64,000 nt of DNA from an uncultured Nitrososphaerota archaeon (GCA_963701075.1 OY969559.1:256001-320000); one strand, 5' to 3'; positions 27,007 to 42,825 are shown, numbered from the stretch's first letter. Notes: a model not told the origin generated them from the letters alone. Made by a program: numbers and translations.

Positions 27007-30000
27007 TTATTGCGACAATAATGTCACAGGTAAACTATCGATAGCCCTATACTTTATCTTCAGATATACGTCGTCCATGGCATGTGCTTGCGGTAAGAGG
27101 CCTTGCTGCGAATCAATTCCTACTTTCCAATTACCAAGTATTGGATCTACTGATGTTATAGAGAATCTCTCAAGCGGGCTATCTGGTCCAGAGTATCTGA
27201 CTCGGTATATCTGGTCTCCTATGGTTACTGACTTGAAGTTGCCTGCAAGCCCAAGGGTAGAGTTTGTTACAAGACAGTCACTTGAGCCACCAATGACACA
27301 TACTCCGTCAGGTGCAATGACATTATATTGCATAGTTCCTTCGTTATTAAATGAAGAATACAGCACTAATGGTTGTGCTATAGTGTTGTTGCTTTCATTT
27401 AGCATATCTATGCTTGATAATTGTGAAAGGGCAATTGTCTGGACTGATGGGAATATGATTATTGAGGATGCCGATGTCTCAAATGACTTGTCGTAAAAGT
27501 TGGCAATTGCCTGTACATTATAGTCATCTAATTTTCCAGTTGAGGGAGCCTTCCATTCCAAGTTTACAGCTGTCTGTCCTGTTCCAAATACCTGTGGGGG
27601 AGACGTATAGGTGACATTTCCATCAACAATTAGAGATACTGAACCGTAGATATGCCCTGTGCTGTTATTAGTAAAGTATGCGGTTTGGATTCCCATCGTT
27701 CCCTCTGCTCTTGTAGGACTGATATCCATCTCAAGATTGCCTGAAATGTCATATTGTGGCTTGACACCAATTGTATACTGGCCAGAATCAGTTGTCTTGC
27801 CTGCATTGTTTTGAGCATCTATCCAGTATGTTATAGCTGGGGCCTGCATCATACTTTCTGGAATTATTCCCGAAACAGCATATGTAGTGTTTGAGATCTG
27901 CAATGGTGTTACACCCATGTTTATTACAGAATATCCAGTGGTAGAGTTTCCTATTGGGACAAACCTGAGCTCCACTTGACTGAGTGGTGTCGGACTGTTA
28001 ATTATGGCAGATACTGTTACTGGTTGGGAGTTTGTAAACTGGTTTTCTTCAGATGGAGTAATTATACCGTTTCCTATCTGGGATTTGACATTAAATATTT
28101 CAGGTGCACCTGGTGGGATTTGTTCTGCAGATGTTGCACCTGTGTTTTCATAATTGATGTTTCCTTCACATCCTGAGACATTTACTGTCTCTCCTACTGA
28201 GAAGACATTGTTATCTGCTGCCTGTAATGCCACTACCTCAAATGATGTTTCTTTTGGATCAACTTGTGCAACATAGACTAGCTTCTGGATAGTAGAGTTT
28301 TGGTTCTCTTGTGCAAATGGTTGCACCTGAGCTAGTGTTGCTTGAACTGTTCCTGTTAGAGATGTGCGCAATATGACTGTGGGGGTGCTGACAGAATATT
28401 CTACAAGCATACTTACGGTATCATTCTGGCATAGGTTATAGGAGACTGAATCGATCTTAAGTTCTGGTGCAAGTACACCTCCAAATGTGCTACTGGATTC
28501 ACCTGAAGATGATACACCAGCTCCTACACCACCAACTCCTACACCACCAACTCCTACAGCTCCTGCACCACCTCCACCGGTGGATACACTAGGTGATGGA
28601 CTTGGCGATACACTACCTGAGCTCCATGTTGCAAATCCAGTAAAGTGCTTTGTCCAGATGTGCAAGTCCGAGCCTACGTTAATCTTACAGTCTCCTCCTG
28701 CTGGCAAGTTGTTGTTTGTTGCCTGTGTATCATCAGTACATGTTGTTGTAATCTCTGTGACTGAGGATGGAGAGTAATAGTAACCAATGTGCTCTCCTGC
28801 CTGACCGAACAATACCAACTGTACCGCATTGTTAAATGTCATCGGAATGCTTGATCCCATCTCTAGCACAGTTTTTACCGTACTGGTTTGTCCTGATGGC
28901 GTAGGTATTACCAGATTCTGTCCGGTTTGTACTGTTGGCAGATCAAGTACGCCATTCCATGATGTTCCTGACATGGCTGTATTTGCTGGAATTGTTACTT
29001 GAACAATGGGATTTTCAGTATCAATAGAATATTTTGTTATGTCAAGAGGATTTGAGATCTGGACGGTATTGGTATTGTCAATTGTTGTATATATTGAAGA
29101 ATAGTTAATCGACGGTGTAGTTACATTGGCTGGAATTGTGACAGTAGAGAGGGCTGCAGTGGGGCTAATCACCACCAGTTGTGGTCGTGATGGATTGACT
29201 GTAATTTGTGTTTGAGTATTGCCAACTAATTGTTGGGTCGGAGTAAGACCCGTGGCAAAAGTATCTGAAAGGCTCATCGATTCTGTGGCAAGTGTAACTG
29301 ACTGGTGGTGGAATGCTGTTACTGTATCGGTGGTGCCCACTGATTCTGTAAGCGGGACTGTGTGTATCTGTGATACTGTAACTGGGTTGTCGGTGGTGCC
29401 TACTGACTCTATGGTAAGTGGAACTGACTGACCATGGGATGTTGTTACTTGGTTGTCGGTAGTACCTACTGACTCGGCGCTAAGTGTAACTGACTGGGGG
29501 TGGAATGCTGTTACTGTATCGGTGGTGCCCACTGATTCTGTAAGCGGGACTGTGTGTTGAGCAACTGCAGATACGGTGTTGTCGGTGGTGCCTACTGACT
29601 CGGTGCTAAGTGTAACTGACTGGGATACTACGACTGTATCAGAAGTGCCCACTGACTCGGTGCTAAGTGTAACTGACTGGTGGTGGGATGTTGTTACTGT
29701 ATCGGTGGTGCCCACTGACTCGGTGCTAAGTGTAACTGTGTGTTGAGCAACTGCAGATACGGTGTTGTCGGTAGTACCCACTGACTCGGTGCTAAGTGTA
29801 ACTGATCTAGATACTGCGACTGTATCAGAAGTGCCCACTGACTCGGTGCTAAGTGTAACTGACTGGTGGTGGGATGTTGTTACTGTATCGGTGGTGCCCA
29901 CTGACTCGGTGCTAAGTGTAGTTGTGTGTTGAGCGACTGCAGAGACGGTGTTGTCGGTAGTACCTACTGACTCGGTGCTAAGTGTAACTGACTGGGATAC

Positions 30001-33000
30001 TACGACTGTATCAGAAGTGCCCACTGACTCGGTGCTAAGTGTAACTGACTGACCATGGGATGTTGTTACTGTATCGGTGGTGCCCACTGACTCGGTGCTA
30101 AGTGTAGTTGTGTGTTGAGCGACTGCAGAGACGGTGTTGTCGGTAGTACCTACTGACTCGGTGCTAAGTGTAACTGACTGGCTGTAGGATGTTGTTACTT
30201 GGTTGTCGGTAGTACCCACTGACTCGGTGCTAAGTGTAACTGACTGGCTGTGGGATGTTGTTACTTGGTTGTCGGTAGTACCCACTGACTCGGTGCTAAG
30301 TGTAACTGACTGGTGGTGGAATGCTGTTACTGTATCGGTGGTGCCCACTGACTCGGTGCTAAGTGTAACTGTGTGATGAGCAACTGCAGATACGGTGTTG
30401 TCTGTAAGACTAACGTTTTCTGTAAATCCCACATCATCCGGATAGAATTTTGAGACTCTGTTGTTGCCAGCATCTGCCACATAGATGCCATTGTTGCTAT
30501 CTATTCCTATACCCATTGGTCCGTCAAACTCGCTACCAGCAGTTCCAGTAGATCCAAATGTTTCAAGGAATGTTCCTGATGGACTGAACTTTTCTATTCT
30601 ATCGTTTTGTGTGTCTGCAACATAGGGGTTGTTAAAGCCGTCAATTGCAATTCCAATAGGACTATTGAATTGACCATTGCCATTTCCTGCTGTACCAAAC
30701 GATGAGGAATAGGTACCAGATGGGTTGAATATCTCTACCCTATTGTTTCCAGTATCGGTGACATAGACCCAACCAGTACTGTTAACTGCCACACCCATAG
30801 GACCTGTAAATTGCCCATTGCCAGTTCCAGTTCCGCTACCAAATGTTGTCTCTAGCGTTCCTGAAGAACTAAACTCTTTTACAAGGTCATCTCCGGTGTC
30901 TGCTACGTAGATATTGCCAGAACTATCCACTGTAACTCCTGTAGGACTGTCAAGTGTACTGGAACCAAATGAGCCTTGAGAACTTCCTGAAGATGAGTAT
31001 TCGTTAATTACGTTATCGTTAGTGTCTGCAACATATACCACGCCGGTATTACTATTGGCTGCCACTCCGAATGCAGCAGTAGATGTAACGTTGAAGGTTG
31101 GTGTGCCACCGCTTGACGGTATTTTAGAAGCATAGTCCAGTGCAGAACCAATGTTAAAGTTACCACTACTATCAATGAACACGCTAAGTGGGGTGTCTAC
31201 TGCGATCTGTCCTATGAATGCGTTGTTGTTTGCATATGCGGTAGAGTTTCCAAACTGGAACATCAGATGATGATGCGCGAAAGTCATGACATGCGAGATC
31301 TCAAAGCCAGTCTCATTGCTTGAGTAATTGTGGTAAATTATCGAGTTACCCTCTATCGTCGGGCTAAGCACAGTGGTTCCATTGTTTAGTTGTAGGAATT
31401 TAAGGTCTGCAGGAGGAGCAGTACCAAAGTTTGTTCCATTAATTGACGTAATGTTCAGGTCTGCAGTGCCTGTGGTGTTAAAGTATACTGTCCAGTTGCC
31501 TCCCACTGCAGGATATGACTGGACATTGATCACCTCTATTTGTGCAGTTATTTGGAATTGCTGTTGTGAGAGATGCGGCACAGTCCACTGTATCTGATCG
31601 GGAATTCCATCGCCGTTTGTATCAACTAGTTTCACTGCAAATCTAGCATCATTGGTAACATCAACACTTGAACCATTAACTAGCCAGTTTAGTTTGAAAT
31701 GGGCACCCTCCTTGACTAGATCTTCAGGTATATTGGAAAATGCTGTTACATTTGTGTAGTGTAAGGTAGAGTTGTGTGCAACCCAGACTAGCTTGTCATA
31801 TTTTGATGCGATAGACAAATCCTTCTCTATAGTAAATGGAGCAGGTGTTACGTAGGCAATATCGTACTTGCTTGCAGATTCGTTGATAAATAGTAACTTG
31901 GTTGGCTTGTTAGTCTGTAATATCTTCGGAATCTGGCCTAGTGATACTAATGGCGCAGATAGATTGCCGCCAAAAGACAGGGTACGCAGACCATGCGGGT
32001 ATTGCAAGTTTTGGCTGGTAAGCTGGTTCAGGAGACTTAACCCATTCAAGTGTTTTTGTTGAATATCAGTATTATTTGAAATTCCTATGCCATTGATGGT
32101 CTGATTTTGGACAGCCGTGAAGCCTGTAGGCATCTGGTTCAAGTTAAAAAGGGTCTGCAACCTGTTGTTGTGTATCACATCAAGGTGGACGATATGGGCA
32201 TCCGCAGGTATCTCCATAGCCAAGTCTTGTGTCTGGTTTGTCAGAGTGACGTTTTGAACCCACATCACCGGCTGGTTGATTAGGATTTTGTTGTGTCTTA
32301 GGAAGAGTCCTCCCATCGTACCATTTCCTACGGCAAATACGGTCGAGTTTGCAGGAATAGTGGAATTGTTGAGAGTAGAATTCGGATAGTCAGAGGTTAG
32401 TGGGTTCGTAGAATTTGTGTTTTGAATAGAGGTAGAGTTGGTAGACGTGAAGTTTGATATTCCTGTTGCAAGTGTGGGATAAAATGTAGAGATGTTTTGA
32501 CCATATACTTCTGAAATTTGAGTAGGCGTCAGTAATGAGTCATAAAGATTGACGTTGCTCAAAAGACCCGAGAACTGGCTTTCTGCTTCATTTCTTATGT
32601 TGTTGTAATATGCACCGATGACGACATCTGCATTAGACGAGATATCCGTATAGTTCTTTGTAGCAAGGTTGCCGTTAACAGCTATTGTTGGGATGCCCGT
32701 TATTGGCATCGAGGACTGGAATGTGCCGTTTACGTATAGTGCAATCGATGATCCATTGAAGGTTGCAGCAAGATTGTTCCAGCTCTGTCCAATGGGCACG
32801 GTTGAGCTTACTGTATCCCATTTTATTCCGTCAAAGACTGAGAACTGTGCTGTCTGATACGGTGGGATCTCGTTGTTAATTGATAGGGTAAATTCATTTT
32901 CTTTGCTAATAACCGTGAAGACTGGAGCCCCCTGTGTATAGTCTGGTTTTACCCATGCAGATAGTGTGAGATCCTTAAGATCCTTTGTGGCAGAGCCGTT

Positions 33001-34344
33001 TGCCGTTAGAAATCCATTTCCTTGCAGTTGCAGTACTGTCTTGTTAGTCTGGTTTGTAAGGCCAATCTGGCCAACTGTCGTGGTATCGTTGTTCTGAGCT
33101 CCAAAATTCCAAGACTGGATTGAACTTGGAAGTGTTGGCAATTGTATGGAGTTGGAATGGTTGTTAAACTGTAATTGTGTGGAGTTGGAATAGTTGTTAA
33201 ACTGTAATTGTGTGGAGTTGGAATAGTTGTTAAACTGTAAATGTGTGGAGTTGGAATGGTTGTTAAACTGTAATTGTTTGTAGTTGGAATAGTTGTTAAA
33301 CTGTAATTGTTTGAAGTTGGAATAGTTGTTAAACTGTAATTGTGTGGAGTTGGAATAGTTGTTAAACTGTAATTGTTTGAAGTTGGAATAGTTGTTAAAC
33401 TGTAAATCACTACCACTGTTATTGCCAGATGGTTGGATATCTGTGCCGGACCCATTATTTTGTGAATAGGCGTATACCAAAAAGCTTGGAGATATAGAGA
33501 CCGGTTCAATAACAGCAGATGAGATTAAAATTGCAATAAAACAAAAAGAGAGAGCTTGTCTCGAATTAGAAACTCTTAATCTTGCACCCTCAGCTCGAAC
33601 GAGGATGTATCCCGAAAGGGGAACTAGCAACAAAAATATTGTTGGGTTTTTTCCATTTACAGAATCGTGCGCTGTAGCTGATACAAAATTTTTCACAATA
33701 ACCAGGTCATCAGAAAGTCTGTAGACCAGCCCTTGTACAGAAGAGCCATGTGTAGACTCTGACAGGTAGTTTAACAGATTTTCATTTATTTTTCCAAAAT
33801 TGTTTACTACATTCTGATTCAATAATCTGGATGGGGATAATTCTAGATTTTTCAAAAATGTAATTGGTTCCATGTTTATATTTTTAGACGGTATACCGTT
33901 ATTGATAACAATTGATCTTCCATTAAATCTAATTCTGTCAGAATTTGATATTCTTTCCATTGTTGTTACAGTATCAGAGTTTTGTTTCAAAACAAGAAAT
34001 GCATTCTGTCCAGGGATATTGTCATAGATTGAAAGATTTTCGAACAGATTAATTTGAGTGTTAATTGATGATCGGGTGTTAGCAGAATTTGAAATTTCAT
34101 TTTGTGGTTGGTTGTTGTTTGAATTATCATTGGTGCTGGTTCCCATACTTTCTGAAAGGTCTACCTCGATTTTTTTAGCTTGATGATTTGATACACTGGT
34201 AGTAATTATTTTTTGATCTGGTGTCATTGTCTCAGTTTTTTGAAGATCAGGTAACCCAAGCGTTCCAAACTCTGCATTTGCCATTCCAAGTGACGAAGCG
34301 ATTATCAATCCAATTAGTATCAATGAGGAAATTTTTATCATCAA
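27007..34344 (-). CDS. giant (2445 aa) cell-surface protein: signal peptide, internal TM pair, N/Q repeats, LamG domain, NHL propeller, ESVGTTD repeat stalk, Gly linker, beta-rich C-terminus
   Basis: LTLSAWVKP / ATFNGSSIALYVNG / FSGLLSNVNLYDSLLT (LamG); P.GV.VD.SG.IYVADTGN.RV (NHL); many N-x-S/T sequons. Confidence 0.85.
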   Translation of the reverse strand: MMIKISSLILIGLIIASSLGMANAEFGTLGLPDLQKTETMTPDQKIITTSVSNHQAKKIEVDLSESMGTSTNDNSNNNQPQNEISNSANTRSSINTQINLFENLSIYDNIPGQNAFLVLKQNSDTVTTMERISNSDRIRFNGRSIVINNGIPSKNINMEPITFLKNLELSPSRLLNQNVVNNFGKINENLLNYLSESTHGSSVQGLVYRLSDDLVIVKNFVSATAHDSVNGKNPTIFLLLVPLSGYILVRAEGARLRVSNSRQALSFCFIAILISSAVIEPVSISPSFLVYAYSQNNGSGTDIQPSGNNSGSDLQFNNYSNFKQLQFNNYSNSTQLQFNNYSNFKQLQFNNYSNYKQLQFNNHSNSTHLQFNNYSNSTQLQFNNYSNSTQLQFNNHSNSIQLPTLPSSIQSWNFGAQNNDTTTVGQIGLTNQTNKTVLQLQGNGFLTANGSATKDLKDLTLSAWVKPDYTQGAPVFTVISKENEFTLSINNEIPPYQTAQFSVFDGIKWDTVSSTVPIGQSWNNLAATFNGSSIALYVNGTFQSSMPITGIPTIAVNGNLATKNYTDISSNADVVIGAYYNNIRNEAESQFSGLLSNVNLYDSLLTPTQISEVYGQNISTFYPTLATGISNFTSTNSTSIQNTNSTNPLTSDYPNSTLNNSTIPANSTVFAVGNGTMGGLFLRHNKILINQPVMWVQNVTLTNQTQDLAMEIPADAHIVHLDVIHNNRLQTLFNLNQMPTGFTAVQNQTINGIGISNNTDIQQKHLNGLSLLNQLTSQNLQYPHGLRTLSFGGNLSAPLVSLGQIPKILQTNKPTKLLFINESASKYDIAYVTPAPFTIEKDLSIASKYDKLVWVAHNSTLHYTNVTAFSNIPEDLVKEGAHFKLNWLVNGSSVDVTNDARFAVKLVDTNGDGIPDQIQWTVPHLSQQQFQITAQIEVINVQSYPAVGGNWTVYFNTTGTADLNITSINGTNFGTAPPADLKFLQLNNGTTVLSPTIEGNSIIYHNYSSNETGFEISHVMTFAHHHLMFQFGNSTAYANNNAFIGQIAVDTPLSVFIDSSGNFNIGSALDYASKIPSSGGTPTFNVTSTAAFGVAANSNTGVVYVADTNDNVINEYSSSGSSQGSFGSSTLDSPTGVTVDSSGNIYVADTGDDLVKEFSSSGTLETTFGSGTGTGNGQFTGPMGVAVNSTGWVYVTDTGNNRVEIFNPSGTYSSSFGTAGNGNGQFNSPIGIAIDGFNNPYVADTQNDRIEKFSPSGTFLETFGSTGTAGSEFDGPMGIGIDSNNGIYVADAGNNRVSKFYPDDVGFTENVSLTDNTVSAVAHHTVTLSTESVGTTDTVTAFHHQSVTLSTESVGTTDNQVTTSHSQSVTLSTESVGTTDNQVTTSYSQSVTLSTESVGTTDNTVSAVAQHTTTLSTESVGTTDTVTTSHGQSVTLSTESVGTSDTVVVSQSVTLSTESVGTTDNTVSAVAQHTTTLSTESVGTTDTVTTSHHQSVTLSTESVGTSDTVAVSRSVTLSTESVGTTDNTVSAVAQHTVTLSTESVGTTDTVTTSHHQSVTLSTESVGTSDTVVVSQSVTLSTESVGTTDNTVSAVAQHTVPLTESVGTTDTVTAFHPQSVTLSAESVGTTDNQVTTSHGQSVPLTIESVGTTDNPVTVSQIHTVPLTESVGTTDTVTAFHHQSVTLATESMSLSDTFATGLTPTQQLVGNTQTQITVNPSRPQLVVISPTAALSTVTIPANVTTPSINYSSIYTTIDNTNTVQISNPLDITKYSIDTENPIVQVTIPANTAMSGTSWNGVLDLPTVQTGQNLVIPTPSGQTSTVKTVLEMGSSIPMTFNNAVQLVLFGQAGEHIGYYYSPSSVTEITTTCTDDTQATNNNLPAGGDCKINVGSDLHIWTKHFTGFATWSSGSVSPSPSPSVSTGGGGAGAVGVGGVGVGGVGAGVSSSGESSSTFGGVLAPELKIDSVSYNLCQNDTVSMLVEYSVSTPTVILRTSLTGTVQATLAQVQPFAQENQNSTIQKLVYVAQVDPKETSFEVVALQAADNNVFSVGETVNVSGCEGNINYENTGATSAEQIPPGAPEIFNVKSQIGNGIITPSEENQFTNSQPVTVSAIINSPTPLSQVELRFVPIGNSTTGYSVINMGVTPLQISNTTYAVSGIIPESMMQAPAITYWIDAQNNAGKTTDSGQYTIGVKPQYDISGNLEMDISPTRAEGTMGIQTAYFTNNSTGHIYGSVSLIVDGNVTYTSPPQVFGTGQTAVNLEWKAPSTGKLDDYNVQAIANFYDKSFETSASSIIIFPSVQTIALSQLSSIDMLNESNNTIAQPLVLYSSFNNEGTMQYNVIAPDGVCVIGGSSDCLVTNSTLGLAGNFKSVTIGDQIYRVRYSGPDSPLERFSITSVDPILGNWKVGIDSQQGLLPQAHAMDDVYLKIKYRAIDSLPVTLLSQ
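29260..30425 (-). repeat. coding tandem repeat: 17 units of 19-22 aa (core L(S)TESVGT[TS]D) plus 2 degenerate flanking units; 186-bp higher-order period
   Basis: GGTGTTGTCGGT recurs at 29575, 29761, 29947, 30133. Confidence 0.95.
33142..33405 (-). repeat. 8 x 33-bp coding tandem repeat (LQFNN[YH]SNxx[QH])
   Basis: GTTGTTAAACTGTAA recurring every 33 bp. Confidence 0.95.
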
Positions 34345-36360: not shown

Positions 36361-36535
36361 TTAATATTCCTGTAAAAACCACTGAAGGTTTCTTATAGTA
36401 CAAGTTCCAGCAGCATTCAATCTTGCAAGGGCAATATCAAAGAAATATTTTGTACCCACAGTAAAATGTTGGCCTGCAACTGTAATTGAGAATGTTTGGT
36501 TTACTGTATCCCAATTAGAGCCCCAATAGCCCAAG
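36361..36535 (-). pseudogene. orphan alternative C-terminal tip of the upstream fibre-like protein
   Basis: 16/43 identical residues, ungapped, with the last 43 aa of 36536..37864; has a stop codon but no start. Confidence 0.8.
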
Positions 36536-37864
36536 TTATTTCTCCTGCAATAACCACTCGGTATTATAAAGAACGCATGTACTGCCAGATGTAGTTCTTG
36601 CGGCGGCCAAATCAACATATTCCGTGGTTCCCGGAGTAAGTCCTGTTATCTCGCCAGTCCTTGCAAATGGAATTGGATCACCGGATGTCGGTATCTTGAC
36701 ACTGAGATCACTTCCTAATTCCGTTCCTGCCAATGTTGCACCGTTTATGCCCATATTTGAAGTCGAATATCTAATTTCAATAACACACCCACCTCCATTC
36801 GATCCAGTGTCGACATAGCCTGAAATTGTCACCTCTACATTTCCTGTAACCTCTGGAGTTAGAGTTGCATAATCTCCCATCATTACAACAGTTGCAGCCG
36901 TTGGTCCTGTTGCGTTTCCTAATGCTGCATGTCCTACAGTATAATTAATCTGCGGCCTTACTGCGAATGTTTCAGTCTCTTTGGTAAGAGGTAAGTTTAG
37001 GGTTTCGTTTGCAGCCACTGCGGCATTACTAATTTTAGTGGTAAACGTACTTGCTGGATTTCTTATTATTATTCCACCCGAACCAAACTTCATTGTATTA
37101 TTTCCAGTCCAAGTTTGTATCATGTTTAATGCACCAAGAGTATCAGATCCAGTGATCAATGGTAAGTTGAGAGTTTCATTTGCTGTAACTGCTCCCCCTG
37201 CAAGAGTTGTGGCATGTGTATTAGCTGCATTAGAAACGACCAGACCTGTATTTGCTGCTGTAAATGTATTTGTGTCATGACTAAATGTATTTGCACCAGT
37301 CCAAGTTTGAGTAAGACCTAGAGTTCCAAGAGTATCACCCGCCGCAATATTTGGAATTGCAAGAGCCTGAGTTGTTGTCTGGGCTGATGAAAGTGTAAGA
37401 GTTTTTCCTGCAGTCATTCCAGATAATGAGAACGTTAGTTGTTTACTGGTTGTTGTTGGGTCGGTTATCGTTGTACCTCCTGAAAATGTATTGGCGCCAG
37501 TCCAAGTTTGAGAAAGACCTAGCGCACCAACCGTTTGAGTACCCGATGATGCTTGGTATTTCAAAGTGTTTGCTGTTGTAGTACTTAGCCACAGATCTCC
37601 ACTAGCAAGTGAGGAGGGATCAGCCGAGGAAGCAAGATTAAGGCCTGCAGTAGTACCAGAGTTTTGAAATGTTTGTTTGTCTCCAGCTGTATACGTATTT
37701 ACAGTATCAGTAAAAACAGTCGTGCTAGGAAGGTCACTCTCCAGAAATTGCCCGACCGTTGATATTGCCTTTTTTGGAATACCTGCTGCATCAGCAGCAC
37801 TGACAGCAACTGCTGTGACTATTACCAATATTACAATTAAGGTATAATCCCTGTTTTCCAACAA
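36536..37864 (-). CDS. secreted phage tail-fibre-like protein
   Basis: Signal peptide (TLIVILVIVTAVAVSAADA), 3 x QTWTG.NT and 2 x ANETLNLPL shaft repeats, T/G/S rich, C-terminal beta domain; start moved to TTG 37864. Confidence 0.65.
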   Translation of the reverse strand: MLENRDYTLIVILVIVTAVAVSAADAAGIPKKAISTVGQFLESDLPSTTVFTDTVNTYTAGDKQTFQNSGTTAGLNLASSADPSSLASGDLWLSTTTANTLKYQASSGTQTVGALGLSQTWTGANTFSGGTTITDPTTTSKQLTFSLSGMTAGKTLTLSSAQTTTQALAIPNIAAGDTLGTLGLTQTWTGANTFSHDTNTFTAANTGLVVSNAANTHATTLAGGAVTANETLNLPLITGSDTLGALNMIQTWTGNNTMKFGSGGIIIRNPASTFTTKISNAAVAANETLNLPLTKETETFAVRPQINYTVGHAALGNATGPTAATVVMMGDYATLTPEVTGNVEVTISGYVDTGSNGGGCVIEIRYSTSNMGINGATLAGTELGSDLSVKIPTSGDPIPFARTGEITGLTPGTTEYVDLAAARTTSGSTCVLYNTEWLLQEK

Positions 37865-38113
37865 TATTATTTTGTATTTTAAGAGATAAGCTTTTGGGTA
37901 AAATGGATGAAAAATGAATTCCTTTTTGGCAATAAATTCAACGTGGTAGGCAGGTGAAGAGAAATGTCCTGACCCGAATAGTGAAAGCACAGGAAGCCTA
38001 CCCTTTTGGTGTAATTATTTTATATTCCCAAAAGCACACAAGGTCTACAAAAAAATTCCTAACAACTCCTAGAGTCTATAAGAAAAATAATGAACTCGTT
38101 TTTAATGACGAGT

Positions 38114-38755
38114 TTAGGTTGTGGTTATAGTCCAGGTAACTGTTAGCGAGTCGCCGCTATTTAGGCTGACAGCACTGGCAAATTTTTGGTGAGCCAGCAT
38201 GTCTCCTGCCCCCTCAGTTGTGGAATCAAACACTCCTGCCTCTGCAATGCCGGCTACGGATGTGGTTGAAGTGTATGTATTGGCTATTGTAACTGTGGTA
38301 GTACCTGAAGCTGCTGCCGAGTCTGTAGCAGTAGCTTTTGCTCTCGAATCTGAAGCACCCAGACCAAAGTCATTTGCATTTATCTCAGTTCCTAGTGCAG
38401 TATCAGTGGCTGCTGGAGCTCCAGTCCCGGTTCCAAGTGCAATTACATCAAAGACAGCGGTTCCATTCACACCACAGGAATGCGATGTGTGTCCACTAAA
38501 CAAATCTCCTGCAGTACAGTCCACCCCGGTATTTGTTATCAAGTTGTCAGTCTGTTGATAAGACTTGATGTTTCCATGAGAGTCTCTCTCTACCAGTGTT
38601 ATGTGCCCCAACATATTGGTCGTTGCAGGCAGGGTTTTATCTGTGGTATCTTGAGAAGGAGAGTAGCTCGTTGCAAATATGCCGTCAAGCCCCATTGAAC
38701 TTACCACGGCAACAATAGCTATTCCCATCAAGGCCACAGTTGTGCTTTGTTTCAT
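38114..38755 (-). CDS. secreted protein resembling phage tail-collar fibre proteins
   Basis: Signal peptide; NLITNTG...IALGTGTGAPAATDTALGTEI...IAEAGVF...GDMLA..F..V.LNSGDSLTVTWTI pattern. Confidence 0.6.
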   Translation of the reverse strand: MKQSTTVALMGIAIVAVVSSMGLDGIFATSYSPSQDTTDKTLPATTNMLGHITLVERDSHGNIKSYQQTDNLITNTGVDCTAGDLFSGHTSHSCGVNGTAVFDVIALGTGTGAPAATDTALGTEINANDFGLGASDSRAKATATDSAAASGTTTVTIANTYTSTTSVAGIAEAGVFDSTTEGAGDMLAHQKFASAVSLNSGDSLTVTWTITTT

Positions 38756-38833
38756 TGCACTATGTTTAATAGCATAATTAATAGAGCTTACGGCATTTGT
38801 CTGAATTTTCCAGTTCCAAAGTGGATCCTATTG

Positions 38834-39082
38834 TCAATGTTGGGTAGGTGTTGTGCCTAGCGTCTCATTTAGGCCTATTGTAAAGTGCTTATGGGTAGAG
38901 TTAGTGTTCGTGTTTTCTTGACTGCTGTTACCATTATTGCTATTGATGGTACCATTACTGCTGCTATAATCTATTTTATGACCTTGATATGACGCCAGTG
39001 CTATTCCAATGATAACAATAATGACTGCAACAATTGCTATTGCAAATTTTTTGTCCAAAGATATATCGTGAGATTTTATCAT
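38834..39082 (-). CDS. small membrane-anchored protein ending in one LxETLGTT motif
   Basis: TM helix FAIAIVAVIIVIIGIALA, N/S/T linker, C-terminal HFTIGLNETLGTT. Confidence 0.7.
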   Translation of the reverse strand: MIKSHDISLDKKFAIAIVAVIIVIIGIALASYQGHKIDYSSSNGTINSNNGNSSQENTNTNSTHKHFTIGLNETLGTTPTQH

Positions 39083-39153
39083 ATTTGCAATATAAACATG
39101 GTGCAAAATGTAATAGTCAATATTTTTATCAACTGTAAGGCTAGGACGATCAC

Positions 39154-39935
39154 ATGAAAAAATATTATTTTGCCGTGGCAGTTTTTTTTCTTATTTTGTT
39201 TCATATTCCAAATGTATTTGCAATAGAGCCCATAATGATAACAATTTCAAACGATATGAATAAGGTAATTTTTGATGGAAAGTGGTCATTTATGACAGAA
39301 TGGAAGCACTCAAGTCTTAATACACTGTCCTATGACGATGGAACCACAATTGAATTAAGGACGGCTTGGCAAGGTGATTTCATTTATGTCTTCATGGATG
39401 ATATCAGTACCAACAGATGGGCAAGCGGAGCAGACAGAGCAGTCGTTTGTTTTGACAAAAATAATGACAAAAACTTGACAGCTAATGCAGATGACTATTG
39501 TTTTGTAAACATACTTTCTGGCAAAGAGCCATTTACTCTGCAAGGGGGATCTGCCCTAGGTTTTACAAGCAATTTCAAGAAAATTCCAAATCCAGAAGGG
39601 TTTGTTGCAGTAGCTGGCATCTCTGATCAAAATGATCGTTACACCCCGGTTCCACATCCTGGATATGAGTTTAGAATTCCAACGGATCTGGTTGGAAGAT
39701 CTGCGGACTATGGATTCTATGTTGAAGTTTATCATTCCTTATCAAATAAGGTCTATTCGTGGCCCCAAGACATAGATCTGACAACGCCACTTGAAATTCC
39801 AAGTCCAAGCCAGTGGGGTGATTTAGTATCCCCGGATAATTCTCTTCCAGAGTTTCAATGGCCTATGATACCATTGCTTTTAGTATAGCATATGTAATCT
39901 GGTTTACTCAAAGAAAACAAATCTCTTTAAACTAA
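39154..39935 (+). CDS. secreted protein with PEF-CTERM-like sorting signal (frameshift in T run ~39880)
   Basis: Signal peptide; FDGKW...YEFRIP; SLPEF followed by TM and basic tail (LLFSIAYVIWFTQRK) if one T is restored. Confidence 0.7.
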
Positions 39936-39954
39936 TTATCAAGAAAATCTCTCA

Positions 39955-41446: not shown

Positions 41447-42764
41447 TCTTCTGTCAAATCTCTGTTGCAGGTATTACGATATGTATGGTAATGATAACAT
41501 AACCAGACTCTTTTGTTTGTTGTTCTGCCCAACACATACATACAGAAATGACTTCCATTGCAATCCAATCTGTTAAACAGCGTCACGGTATTAATGATCG
41601 TAAAGTTATCAACTTTTTGGAGATATTCAGATACATGGTAAATCACAGTATCAGGATTGGATTGCAAAATAATTGCTCTACAATGAAAAAGCTTTGCATG
41701 TTATCTTATCATGAACTTAAACAATATGATATCCCAAGCTACTACAAACTATGTGCCATATCAAAGGCAGCTGGGATCCTAGCATCAAGGAATAAATCAA
41801 TTAAACGTGGTTATCCGGTCAAGAATCCATATATGAAAAAACCAGTACTTGTTTCATGTTACGGATTCAAGTACCAAGATGGAACCCTAAAGATTCCTCT
41901 TGGAGACAGAACGTATCTTGATGTATCATTAAATCATTATTGTAAGGAAATTTTATCAGAAGATCCTCAAATCAAAATCAGATCCTTTACACTTACTGCC
42001 AGTCATATCAGCATATCATATTCAAAAGAGATCACTCAAATCAAATGTGATAGTACTGTAGGAATTGATAGGAATCTTGGAAATCTTACCCTTGGTAACT
42101 GTACCAAGGTAATTCAGTTTGACCTTTCAAAGACTATACAAATTGCTGAAAACACAAAATCAATCTATTCCAGTTTCAAACGTAATGATTGCAGAATCAG
42201 AAAGAAAATTTATTCCAAGCATGGAAAGAGGAGAAAGAATAGAGTAGATCAGATCTTGCATAAAGTTTCAAAGACTGTTGTTGAGTATGTGATAACGAAC
42301 AAAACAGCTCTGGTGTTTGAAGATATCAGGCATATTAGAAAATTATATCAGAAAGGCAATGGACAAGGAAGAGAATATCGTGGAAGGATGAATGGTTGGT
42401 CATTTTCAGAAATAAAAAGACAGATAGAATACAAGTCAAGATGGAAAGGTGTTCCAATCATTCAGTTATCAAAAAAGGAAACAATGGGTACAAGTTCACG
42501 CTGTCCTATATGTGGGGAGAGACTCCGAAAGGACATGCAAACGAGGAACTTGTCATGTGATGTTTGTAAGAAGAGATGGGATCGTGATGTTGTCGCAGTC
42601 ATGAACCAGTCTCTTCGAGGGTGGGTTAGGTTCGCTCATTCAAAAGGTCCTGCAGATGAAGCGATGATACAGGAACCTGGGTCTGTTGTCATAACAATAA
42701 CATCCCCAGTAATCCTGAGAGTCGATGCAGGAAAGTCGTGTCTTCAACAGGAGACGACAGAATC
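41447..42764 (+). mobile_element. TnpB-only element with ~30-bp imperfect terminal inverted repeats and flanking 9-bp direct repeat
   Basis: AGCTCACAA at 41438-41446 and 42765-42773; TTCTGTC..CTGTTG (left) versus CAACAG..GACAGAA (right). Confidence 0.55.
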
Positions 42765-42825
42765 AGCTCACAAAATAAATCCAACAAGGTCGGTTCGAAA
42801 TCGTGTCAAGGATAGCGGTATTTGA
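41548..42825 (+). CDS. tnpB: TnpB RNA-guided endonuclease (TnpB-2); true stop may be near 42766
   Basis: GIDRN / VFEDI / DRDVVA; CPIC..CDVC; same subfamily as TnpB-1 (RKLYxKGNGQGR). Confidence 0.92.
   Translation: MTSIAIQSVKQRHGINDRKVINFLEIFRYMVNHSIRIGLQNNCSTMKKLCMLSYHELKQYDIPSYYKLCAISKAAGILASRNKSIKRGYPVKNPYMKKPVLVSCYGFKYQDGTLKIPLGDRTYLDVSLNHYCKEILSEDPQIKIRSFTLTASHISISYSKEITQIKCDSTVGIDRNLGNLTLGNCTKVIQFDLSKTIQIAENTKSIYSSFKRNDCRIRKKIYSKHGKRRKNRVDQILHKVSKTVVEYVITNKTALVFEDIRHIRKLYQKGNGQGREYRGRMNGWSFSEIKRQIEYKSRWKGVPIIQLSKKETMGTSSRCPICGERLRKDMQTRNLSCDVCKKRWDRDVVAVMNQSLRGWVRFAHSKGPADEAMIQEPGSVVITITSPVILRVDAGKSCLQQETTESAHKINPTRSVRNRVKDSGI
42645..42785 (+). ncRNA. putative omega-RNA of TnpB-2
   Basis: Nucleotide conservation with the TnpB-1 3' end; CTGCA/TGCAG and CTGGG/CCCAG stems; boundaries approximate. 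Confidence 0.6.

Follow-up and report, generated by a model that had tools for sequence, protein, structure and literature searches.

The Locus and Its Genes

The window analyzed here, a stretch of 64,000 nucleotides from an uncultured Nitrososphaerota archaeon (GCA_963701075.1 OY969559.1:256001-320000), carries the gene of a small membrane protein which ends in a short conserved peptide motif. The same motif is found near the N-terminus of a very large surface protein (hereafter the giant) encoded downstream, and between the two genes lies that of a 213-residue protein (p213) with a predicted fold of viral tail-fiber type. The motif is discussed below as a putative docking strand for p213, a reading to which we give about an even chance. 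The host genome is archaeal, a single contig of 1.92 Mb with a GC content of 38.6%. Its relatives bear the source names Nitrosotalea or Nitrosopumilaceae, and "the genus" in all counts is Nitrosotalea, going by these names. The features on which the argument draws are the following, with positions counted in the window.

38834..39082, minus strand: gene of the small membrane protein; open reading frame (ORF) of 82 amino acids from the ATG at 39082, more likely 74 amino acids from the TTG at 39058
38990..39046, minus strand: its single hydrophobic helix, residues 13-31, with Lys residues ahead; probably N-terminus in, C-terminus out
38894..38989, minus strand: its variable N/S/T-rich linker, residues 32-63
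38846..38893, minus strand: its C-terminal strand-like motif, residues 64-79, [KR][KH]x[YFIL]x[VIL]xLxE[STNQ][VLMI]G[IVMT]
38114..38755, minus strand: gene of p213, with an N-terminal hydrophobic segment, a linker and a predicted β-sandwich (residues 45-213)
27007..34344, minus strand: gene of the giant, 2445 amino acids, defined by translation, Pfam matches and N-terminal alignment
34132..34179, minus strand: motif site 1 of the giant, residues 56-71, about 30 residues after the signal peptide
34021..34053, minus strand: motif site 2 of the giant (degenerate), residues 98-108
29257..30390, minus strand: stalk of the giant, residues ~1319-1698, 18 tandem units of 19-22 amino acids, consensus QSVTLSTESVGTTD...
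39154..39888, plus strand: gene of a 244-residue secreted protein (p244) with a PEF-CTERM-like end, divergent from the small gene
36536..37990, minus strand: gene of a 484-residue anchored protein (p484), 3′ of the p213 gene

The small gene ends 78 nt upstream of the p213 gene and thus lies, as the original prediction had it, immediately upstream of a "collar-like" gene, a fair name in view of the phage tail/neck fiber fold described below. The gene of a 182-residue protein (p182) sits on the opposite strand between the p484 gene and that of the giant. On the other side, the small gene and the p244 gene have a divergent promoter region of 71 nt in common. In ten regions of 20 kb each, fetched from other genomes of the genus, the order of the locus is CdvB-UDG-p244 <-> small-p213-(p484-p182)-giant-GlyRS. 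The flanks CdvB/UDG and GlyRS are kept in all ten and no virion genes occur at the locus; the small motif protein is present in eight, and eight also have a giant whose N-terminal motif scores 10 bits or more (scoring matrix below). A prophage origin was considered and dropped, since the chromosomal context is conserved. Pfam and NCBIfam hold nothing for the small, 213-, 484-, 244- and 182-residue proteins.

The Small Membrane Protein and Its Motif

The small ORF is real. As read, it comprises a K-rich start, a helix, an N/S/T stretch and the C-terminal motif, followed by three further residues, an arrangement which agrees with the earlier description of a motif on a flexible N/S/T linker behind a transmembrane (TM) helix. 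In the alignment, 25 orthologues begin with M[NDK]KK, which corresponds to the in-frame TTG at 39058; the true start is therefore more likely there than at the ATG. A database protein of 74 residues (P0003) is 84% identical to the small protein. By the positive-inside rule, the N-terminus is expected to lie inside and the C-terminus outside the cell.

A single-protein search of 41 genomes returned two convincing orthologues (E 1.3e-5 and 4.1e-5), both with the same flanking genes, the C-terminal motif kept and a different linker. The family as such became visible through its synteny with the p213 gene: when the fetched p213 loci were scanned, 30 of 39 genomes of the genus proved to encode a small TM protein whose extreme C-terminus is the motif, three of the 30 being flagged as unpublished. 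Among 41 relatives in the database, a hydrophobic N-terminal run is seen in 39 and the motif forms the extreme C-terminus in 40; since the search profile includes the motif, its presence there is by construction, whereas its position was not imposed. All 41 are unnamed by their source or called "hypothetical" or of "unknown function". One member is named by its source as coming from Nitrosotalea devaniterrae, and the locus thus seems to exist in at least one species in culture. Curated family cut-offs were missed by the small protein (YxzE, 14.7 bits against a cut-off of 40; sulfocyanin, 19.4 against 168).

The original prediction had named a lack of conservation of the motif in orthologues as what would speak against it, and the opposite was found. 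Across the 25 aligned orthologues (consensus KHxTxxLxESVGI), the mean commonest-residue fraction is 0.55 in the motif versus 0.28 in the linker, making the motif about twice as conserved, and a Glu is the only invariant residue. The spacing from helix to motif ranges from 18 to 39 residues.

Three other roles for the C-terminus were considered and set aside. An N-x-[ST] glycosylation sequon occurs in the last 14 residues of 13 of the 25 proteins; as a conserved element it was rejected, being absent from the other 12 while the Glu alone is invariant. Nothing supported an isopeptide "tag/catcher" chemistry at this Glu. A short conserved C-terminal peptide on an archaeal surface protein also recalls the PEF-CTERM/PGF-CTERM archaeosortase signals, and PEF-CTERM-like p244 adjoins. 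A sorting signal of this kind was rejected because no TM helix and basic tail follow the motif: the protein ends three residues later and its helix is N-terminal.

The Motif in the Giant Surface Protein

The giant is composed of a signal peptide, the motif sites, a conserved N-domain, two hydrophobic segments, a LamG domain, an NHL propeller, the stalk and C-terminal domains (Pfam: Laminin_G_3, 1.7e-14; NHL, 8.5e-22). The strings that the original prediction had quoted from it all exist, at site 1, at site 2 and in the stalk. Whether they match the C-terminus of the small protein by more than chance depends on the comparison made. Within this genome alone, the likeness is indistinguishable from chance. 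A hidden Markov model (HMM) of the 18 stalk units ranked the small ORF 1255th among 4243 reported matches (7528 ORFs; E 730), and the Smith–Waterman score of the small tail against the giant, 52, was reached by 270 of 2000 shuffles.

With relatives included, the picture differs. An HMM and an ungapped position-specific scoring matrix (PSSM) were built from 18 orthologue C-termini, this genome and its 92% relative being left out. The HMM placed the small ORF first of the 7528 ORFs with E 3e-6. Judged from these alignments, the motif is under selection, because it is the conserved part of the small protein, is recovered by an HMM that excludes the protein itself and holds an extreme C-terminal position. 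In the whole genome, the second-best PSSM window is site 1 of the giant with 16.2 bits, the next reaching 11.9. This score was attained in 9 of 40 genome-wide shuffles, against 4 of 3000 when the giant alone was shuffled; it is unremarkable genome-wide and rare for the giant itself. The bare core pattern also occurs in five other ORFs of the genome.

The comparison of families is stronger. An alignment of the small-protein profile with that of the giant N-termini (hhalign) gave a probability of 94.3 and E 1e-7 over 24 columns centred on the motif. Of 60 other genomes of the genus, 38 encode a homologue of the first 330 residues of the giant. In the alignment of the N-termini the motif has a constant position, about 30 residues past the signal peptide. 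With the PSSM derived from small proteins only, scores of 10 bits or more (33.7 at most) are reached by 11 of 20 giant N-termini and scores of 6 bits or more by 14; those below 6 bits have a degenerate motif or a masked stretch there. Site 2 scores −2.0 bits in this giant and 10.9-15.0 bits at the equivalent column in some relatives; the consensus there across the alignment is IxLSExxxI. From these sequence comparisons, the likeness between the motif and site 1 is more than chance, because of the profile–profile match, the fixed position in two protein families, and the co-variation and synteny described below.

The tie of the stalk to the motif system appears weak. Its units have the core L-x(1-2)-E-S-V-G-T-T-D in common with the small protein, their best PSSM score is 4.6 bits, and the stalk profile matches the two motif families only weakly (E 5.6e-4, probability 29.8; E 4.2e-3, probability 8.1). 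In one other giant, a stalk of 18-residue units with the same core, here TLKETLSSSD, has been amplified independently; among nine more giants that were examined, such units are missing or amount to two or three isolated copies. Of the likenesses originally claimed, that to site 1 therefore stands, site 2 is conserved in place but degenerate, and the stalk agrees in the core only; chance is possible for the stalk units only.

Several further features of the giant were observed. The middle of the stalk array (29257-30390) has a higher-order period of three units, 22 + 21 + 19 residues. In all 24 aligned giants, KNPT-LLLLVPLSGYIL is followed by a short basic loop and a second hydrophobic segment ending in AYA-E (residues ~237-295, 33460-33636). 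This end resembles a signal-peptidase site, so that the element might be a TM hairpin or an internal signal peptide, and the latter could split the giant into an anchored N-terminal piece with the motif sites and a released piece of 2150 amino acids. Just past this segment lie about nine tandem 12-residue units of the QLQFNNYSNSTQ type (residues ~315-395, ~33150-33400). An AlphaFold2 (AF2) model of the first 300 residues, made with a 24-row alignment, has a mean predicted local distance difference test score (pLDDT) of 43.4, too low to judge the packing of the motif on the N-domain.

The Fold and the Relatives of p213

The AF2 model of p213 (pLDDT 84.7) begins with a helix predicted at low confidence, followed by a linker and, from residue 45 on, a β-sandwich. 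Its six best matches among solved structures, searched with VIA-align, are all parts of viral tail or neck fibers. The best of them is chain BD of PDB entry 9H4P, a tail chain of Haloferax tailed virus 1 (HFTV1), with Z 11.3 over 134 residues, a root mean square deviation (rmsd) of 2.1 and 22% identity. Residues 72-211 of p213, a helix (75-86) followed by strands, match chain 8jou_a with Z 8.8 over 122 residues and an rmsd of 3.5; this chain of 136 residues belongs to the GP4 "Fiber I and fiber-tail-adaptor" entry (8JOU). Then follow phiKZ gp139 and a phiKZ baseplate chain (Z 6.7 each), the Bas63 connector (9mt4_K, Z 6.1) and the Sf14 neck (9c39_K, Z 5.9), before unrelated folds at Z 5.2 or less. 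Among predicted viral structures (BFVD), 51 matches with E ≤ 1e-3 were obtained, several of them named tail fiber or tail-collar fiber. On the strength of the model, p213 is a member of the phage tail-fiber/whisker fold class. Taking as a bead a protein of about 110-170 amino acids with an N-terminal helix and a sandwich of the GP4 gp80 or Bas63 gp5 type, residues 72-211 of the p213 model fit this description; the matched chains were taken as bead proteins from their lengths.

In sequence, the p213 family comprises 971 cluster representatives at E ≤ 1e-3. p213 matches PHROG 5417 (E 5.9e-20, function unknown) and PHROG 4176, a "tail fiber protein" (E 1.4e-6). Other searches found little: a sequence search of the PDB with profile A1 gave 0 matches, tblastn against 50,697 phage records gave none, and no match was confirmed in scans of viral contigs with the single protein or with the 14-row alignment A4. 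A single-protein scan of genome contigs recovered one 92% relative only. No window of p213 exceeds 2 bits with the motif PSSM, and p213 is thus without a motif copy of its own. A type IV pilin-like signal on p213 was also considered and dropped, no such sequence motif being present.

Distribution, Linkage and Co-Variation

Of 61 genomes of the genus, 45 carry the p213 gene; among the 32 of high quality, 29 do. Together with the giant N-terminus, the 61 genomes divide into 34 with both, 11 with p213 only, five with the giant only and 11 with neither, counts which are confounded by genome incompleteness and kinship. By profile, a p213-like gene was recognized in four of the five "giant only" genomes, three times on the contig of the giant and once cut by a contig end. 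Across the order, the p213 family is present in 50 of 151 genomes and 25 of 64 genera.

The linkage of the small protein to p213 extends beyond the genus. Of 28 loci of 3.5 kb from other genera, 14 encode a small TM protein with the motif at its end, no more than 1.5 kb away from the p213 homologue. These 14 cover three taxonomic families, and in two of them the orientation of the small gene relative to p213 differs. p244 stands beside p213 in all 13 loci of the host's own family and in two loci of the second family; it occurs in none of the 3.5-kb loci of the third.

The motif copies of the small protein and of the giant also vary together. Their 16-residue sequences have 6.27 of 16 identities when taken from the same genome versus 4.95 across genomes, a likeness reached by 46 of 100000 re-pairings (n = 15) and by 561 of 100000 when the most similar pair is omitted. 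The state of motif position 13, Gly or not, agrees between the two proteins in 15 of 16 genomes (12 Gly in both, three non-Gly in both, one discordant; Fisher 0.007, ignoring kinship). One genome has 15 of 19 residues identical between the two proteins, whose motifs also start at the same residue number; beyond the motif nothing can be aligned. One constraint on both copies would account for this co-variation, and the most economical form of it is a single receptor groove.

As an observation apart, two relatives (L110, G005:C22, and L111, G073:C360) contain an ORF that matches the p213 family in the C-terminal half only, directly upstream of a giant paralogue with a degenerate N-terminal motif.

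Rope-and-Bead Fibers and Donor-Strand Systems

The fold of p213 invites comparison with a set of phage fibers in which beads are held on a rope: the GP4 rope with gp80, A1002 gp39 with gp40/gp41, the Bas63 collar rope domain with whisker gp5, and Sf14 gp30/gp31. In PMC12609058 the Bas63 whisker monomers are described as having "an incomplete sandwich", and there and in PMC13730344 the beads are completed by a strand of the rope protein through β-sheet augmentation. The GP4 rope is there a separate protein with five dimer sites (PMC12609058), and the GP4 fiber monomer gp80 is given as 140 amino acids (PMC13730344).

The locus resembles these systems in its small β-sandwich protein of the same fold class, p213, encoded by an adjacent gene. 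Like the phage ropes, it has as proposed ligand a short extended peptide on another protein, in one, two or many tandem copies: one in the small protein, two at the N-terminus of the giant and 18 stalk units with the core only. It differs in being a cellular locus beside CdvB, UDG and GlyRS with no virion genes, and in that all partners carry signal or TM segments. Moreover, one of its "ropes" is a free-standing membrane protein with a single site, and p213 has an extra conserved N-terminal hairpin (residues 48-73) compared with phage beads. The best structural match, residues 374-508 of the HFTV1 chain (bioRxiv 10.1101/2024.12.09.627619), is likewise archaeal but differs as a domain of a large virion protein, which is not known to us to have a strand ligand. 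By analogy, the locus would work like a viral rope-and-bead system without being a member of one, because it is a conserved chromosomal locus with no virion genes and no sequence relatives in the phage and viral-contig collections searched.

A second group of systems in which a strand from another chain completes a sandwich comprises chaperone–usher pili, TasA/TapA, archaeal threads and bundling pili. Their subunits carry a donor strand of their own and polymerize head to tail; TapA is a small accessory protein which gives the nucleating strand. A pilus of this type was rejected here because p213 has no motif copy. Among the structural matches listed for p213 none has a pilin or TasA-type fold, in a listing that may have missed such families. 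The original idea of a shared docking or donor strand thus survives in its first half: docking fits the conservation, the fixed position in the giant, the co-variation, the synteny and the fold of p213, while a pilus-type donor strand is not supported.

The Motif as a Putative Docking Strand

We infer from these observations the following arrangement. The small protein would be a single-pass membrane protein with its N-terminus inside, presenting a conserved, strand-forming peptide about 16 residues long on a flexible tether, which has 18-39 residues and is probably glycosylated. Both the copy in the small protein and that at the giant N-terminus would dock on one common receptor, most likely p213. 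The motif would then play in the cell the part of a rope site, its amphipathic strand completing or augmenting the p213 sandwich, and the small protein would be a membrane-tethered rope with a single site. Its role may be to anchor p213 to the membrane. Alternatively, it may serve as a placeholder in the p213 groove until the N-terminal strand of the giant takes over, much as chaperone strands do in pilus assembly. The N-terminus of the giant would form a two-site rope that could serve the two halves of a dimer. In the two species with a stalk, the latter is possibly a multi-site rope with further, weaker sites.

A number of points weigh against this proposal. The best match of p213 (Z 11.3) is a domain within a tail chain of 953 residues, and the likeness to bead proteins proper is moderate (Z 8.8, 6.1 and 5.9). 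That 8jou_a is the fiber monomer gp80 is suggested by its length only, 136 modelled residues against 140. p213 is one of several syntenic receptor candidates, p244 being as tightly linked in two taxonomic families. In some genera, p244 and p213 occur together with no detectable small ORF; one other genus of the host's own family (L074, L075, L079) has a gap of 185-350 nt between p244 and p213 in which no small motif ORF was detected, the small gene being there either dispensable or too short or divergent to detect. With hydrophobic segments of its own, the giant may do without an anchor. The co-variation could have arisen by gene conversion among paralogous modules, and two of the 18 sequences behind the HMM and the PSSM come from genomes flagged as unpublished (G019, G050).

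The nearest alternative keeps the docking strand and changes its receptor, to p244, the N-domain of the giant (residues ~110-235) or the S-layer, with p213 as a bystander. The shared promoter region of the small and p244 genes fits this, as does the adjacency of p244 and p213 in the 13 own-family and two second-family loci, and the motif sites of the giant directly precede its conserved domain. Still, three of the five third-family loci encode a small motif protein near p213 but lack p244 within 3.5 kb, and p213 alone has a fold with documented strand capture, so that we regard another receptor as rather unlikely. The motif might also be recognized by an enzyme, for instance a processing protease, a glycosyltransferase or a sorting enzyme, and not act as a binding strand. 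Its place near chain ends (C-terminal in the small protein, just past the signal peptide in the giant), the sequon in about half of the small proteins (13/25) and the PEF-CTERM-like protein at the locus would agree with such a role. A sequon missing from the remaining 12 and from most giant sites does not, nor does the lack of a TM helix and basic tail after the motif, which argues against a CTERM sorting signal. Alternating hydrophobic residues around an invariant Glu extend over about 12 residues, longer than typical cleavage sites, and two substrates of one conserved enzyme would not be expected to co-vary. An enzyme site is accordingly judged distinctly unlikely.

By another view, the small gene arose by duplication of the 5′ end of the giant gene, with its hydrophobic segment, linker and motif, and has stayed alike through gene conversion with no role of its own. 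This view draws on the equal order of modules in both proteins, on the one genome in which 15 of 19 residues and the residue number agree, and on the co-variation, which gene conversion would explain. The likeness is nevertheless limited to the motif, the linker and hydrophobic part being unalignable; the frame and the C-terminal motif are intact in 30 of 39 genomes of the genus and in three taxonomic families; and the small gene stays beside p213, not beside the giant. We consider this reading improbable. Finally, chance likeness among S/T/N-rich sequences of low complexity would account for the shuffles that reach the Smith–Waterman score (270/2000) and, genome-wide, the 16.2 bits (9/40), as well as for the E of 730 of the stalk HMM. 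Set against the profile–profile E of 1e-7, the motif position conserved in two protein families, the co-variation and the synteny, it is very improbable, and for the N-terminal site of the giant it is already refuted.

A docking strand for p213 is the reading that we carry forward, and it can be extended. Ammonia-oxidizing archaea may have domesticated a rope-and-bead principle, or share it with viruses. p213 would form beads on strand motifs, with the small protein as their tether at the membrane. The adhesin-like giant would use its two N-terminal sites for docking, and a stalk of 15-18 units would be coated with beads in some species, in the manner of a chain-like phage fiber. The Glu and the co-variation would then mark a specificity code that matches the set of each cell. 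This wider scenario, built on analogy, is speculative and, in our opinion, doubtful.

The cell envelope of ammonia-oxidizing archaea is known mainly through its S-layer, and to our knowledge it is not understood what keeps their very large surface proteins attached to the cell. A search of the literature on surface or tail-fiber β-strand proteins of ammonia oxidizers and on giant LamG/NHL proteins found nothing relevant. The present work defines an unannotated family of small proteins, a precise peptide motif and a candidate receptor of apparent viral fiber ancestry. Most genomes of the genus have conserved this locus of the small protein, p213 and the motif, and it is partly kept across the order. 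Should the strand indeed dock on p213, this simple peptide-and-domain pair would be the first equivalent of the phage rope-and-bead fiber in a cell.

Neighboring Genes

p484 looks fiber-like from its sequence, with three repeats of the type G(A/T)LGL(S/T)QTWTG(A/N)NTF and a C-terminal β-rich domain; it has no family match in Pfam, NCBIfam or PHROG. Homologues of 380-628 amino acids occupy the equivalent place in three of the ten fetched regions. Its gene is overlapped at the 3′ end by an ORF of 85 amino acids (36361-36618, minus strand) with a C-terminus like that of p484 (both ...W.LQE.), perhaps a spare or decayed duplicate of the p484 C-terminal head domain.

In the interval 37900-39900 of the window no RNA holder is listed. 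The p244 gene stops right after ...PEFQWPMIPLLLV (39860-39945), and the remainder of the PEF-CTERM-like anchor, a hydrophobic stretch and ...WFTQRKQ..., lies in another frame. Since p244 orthologues have this anchor in a single frame, the 1-nt indel is either a real frameshift or an assembly error. Further along, at 41548-42825 on the plus strand, an ORF of 425 amino acids with a C-terminal zinc-finger-like CxxC...CxxC appears to encode a transposon protein of the TnpB/IS605-OrfB type.

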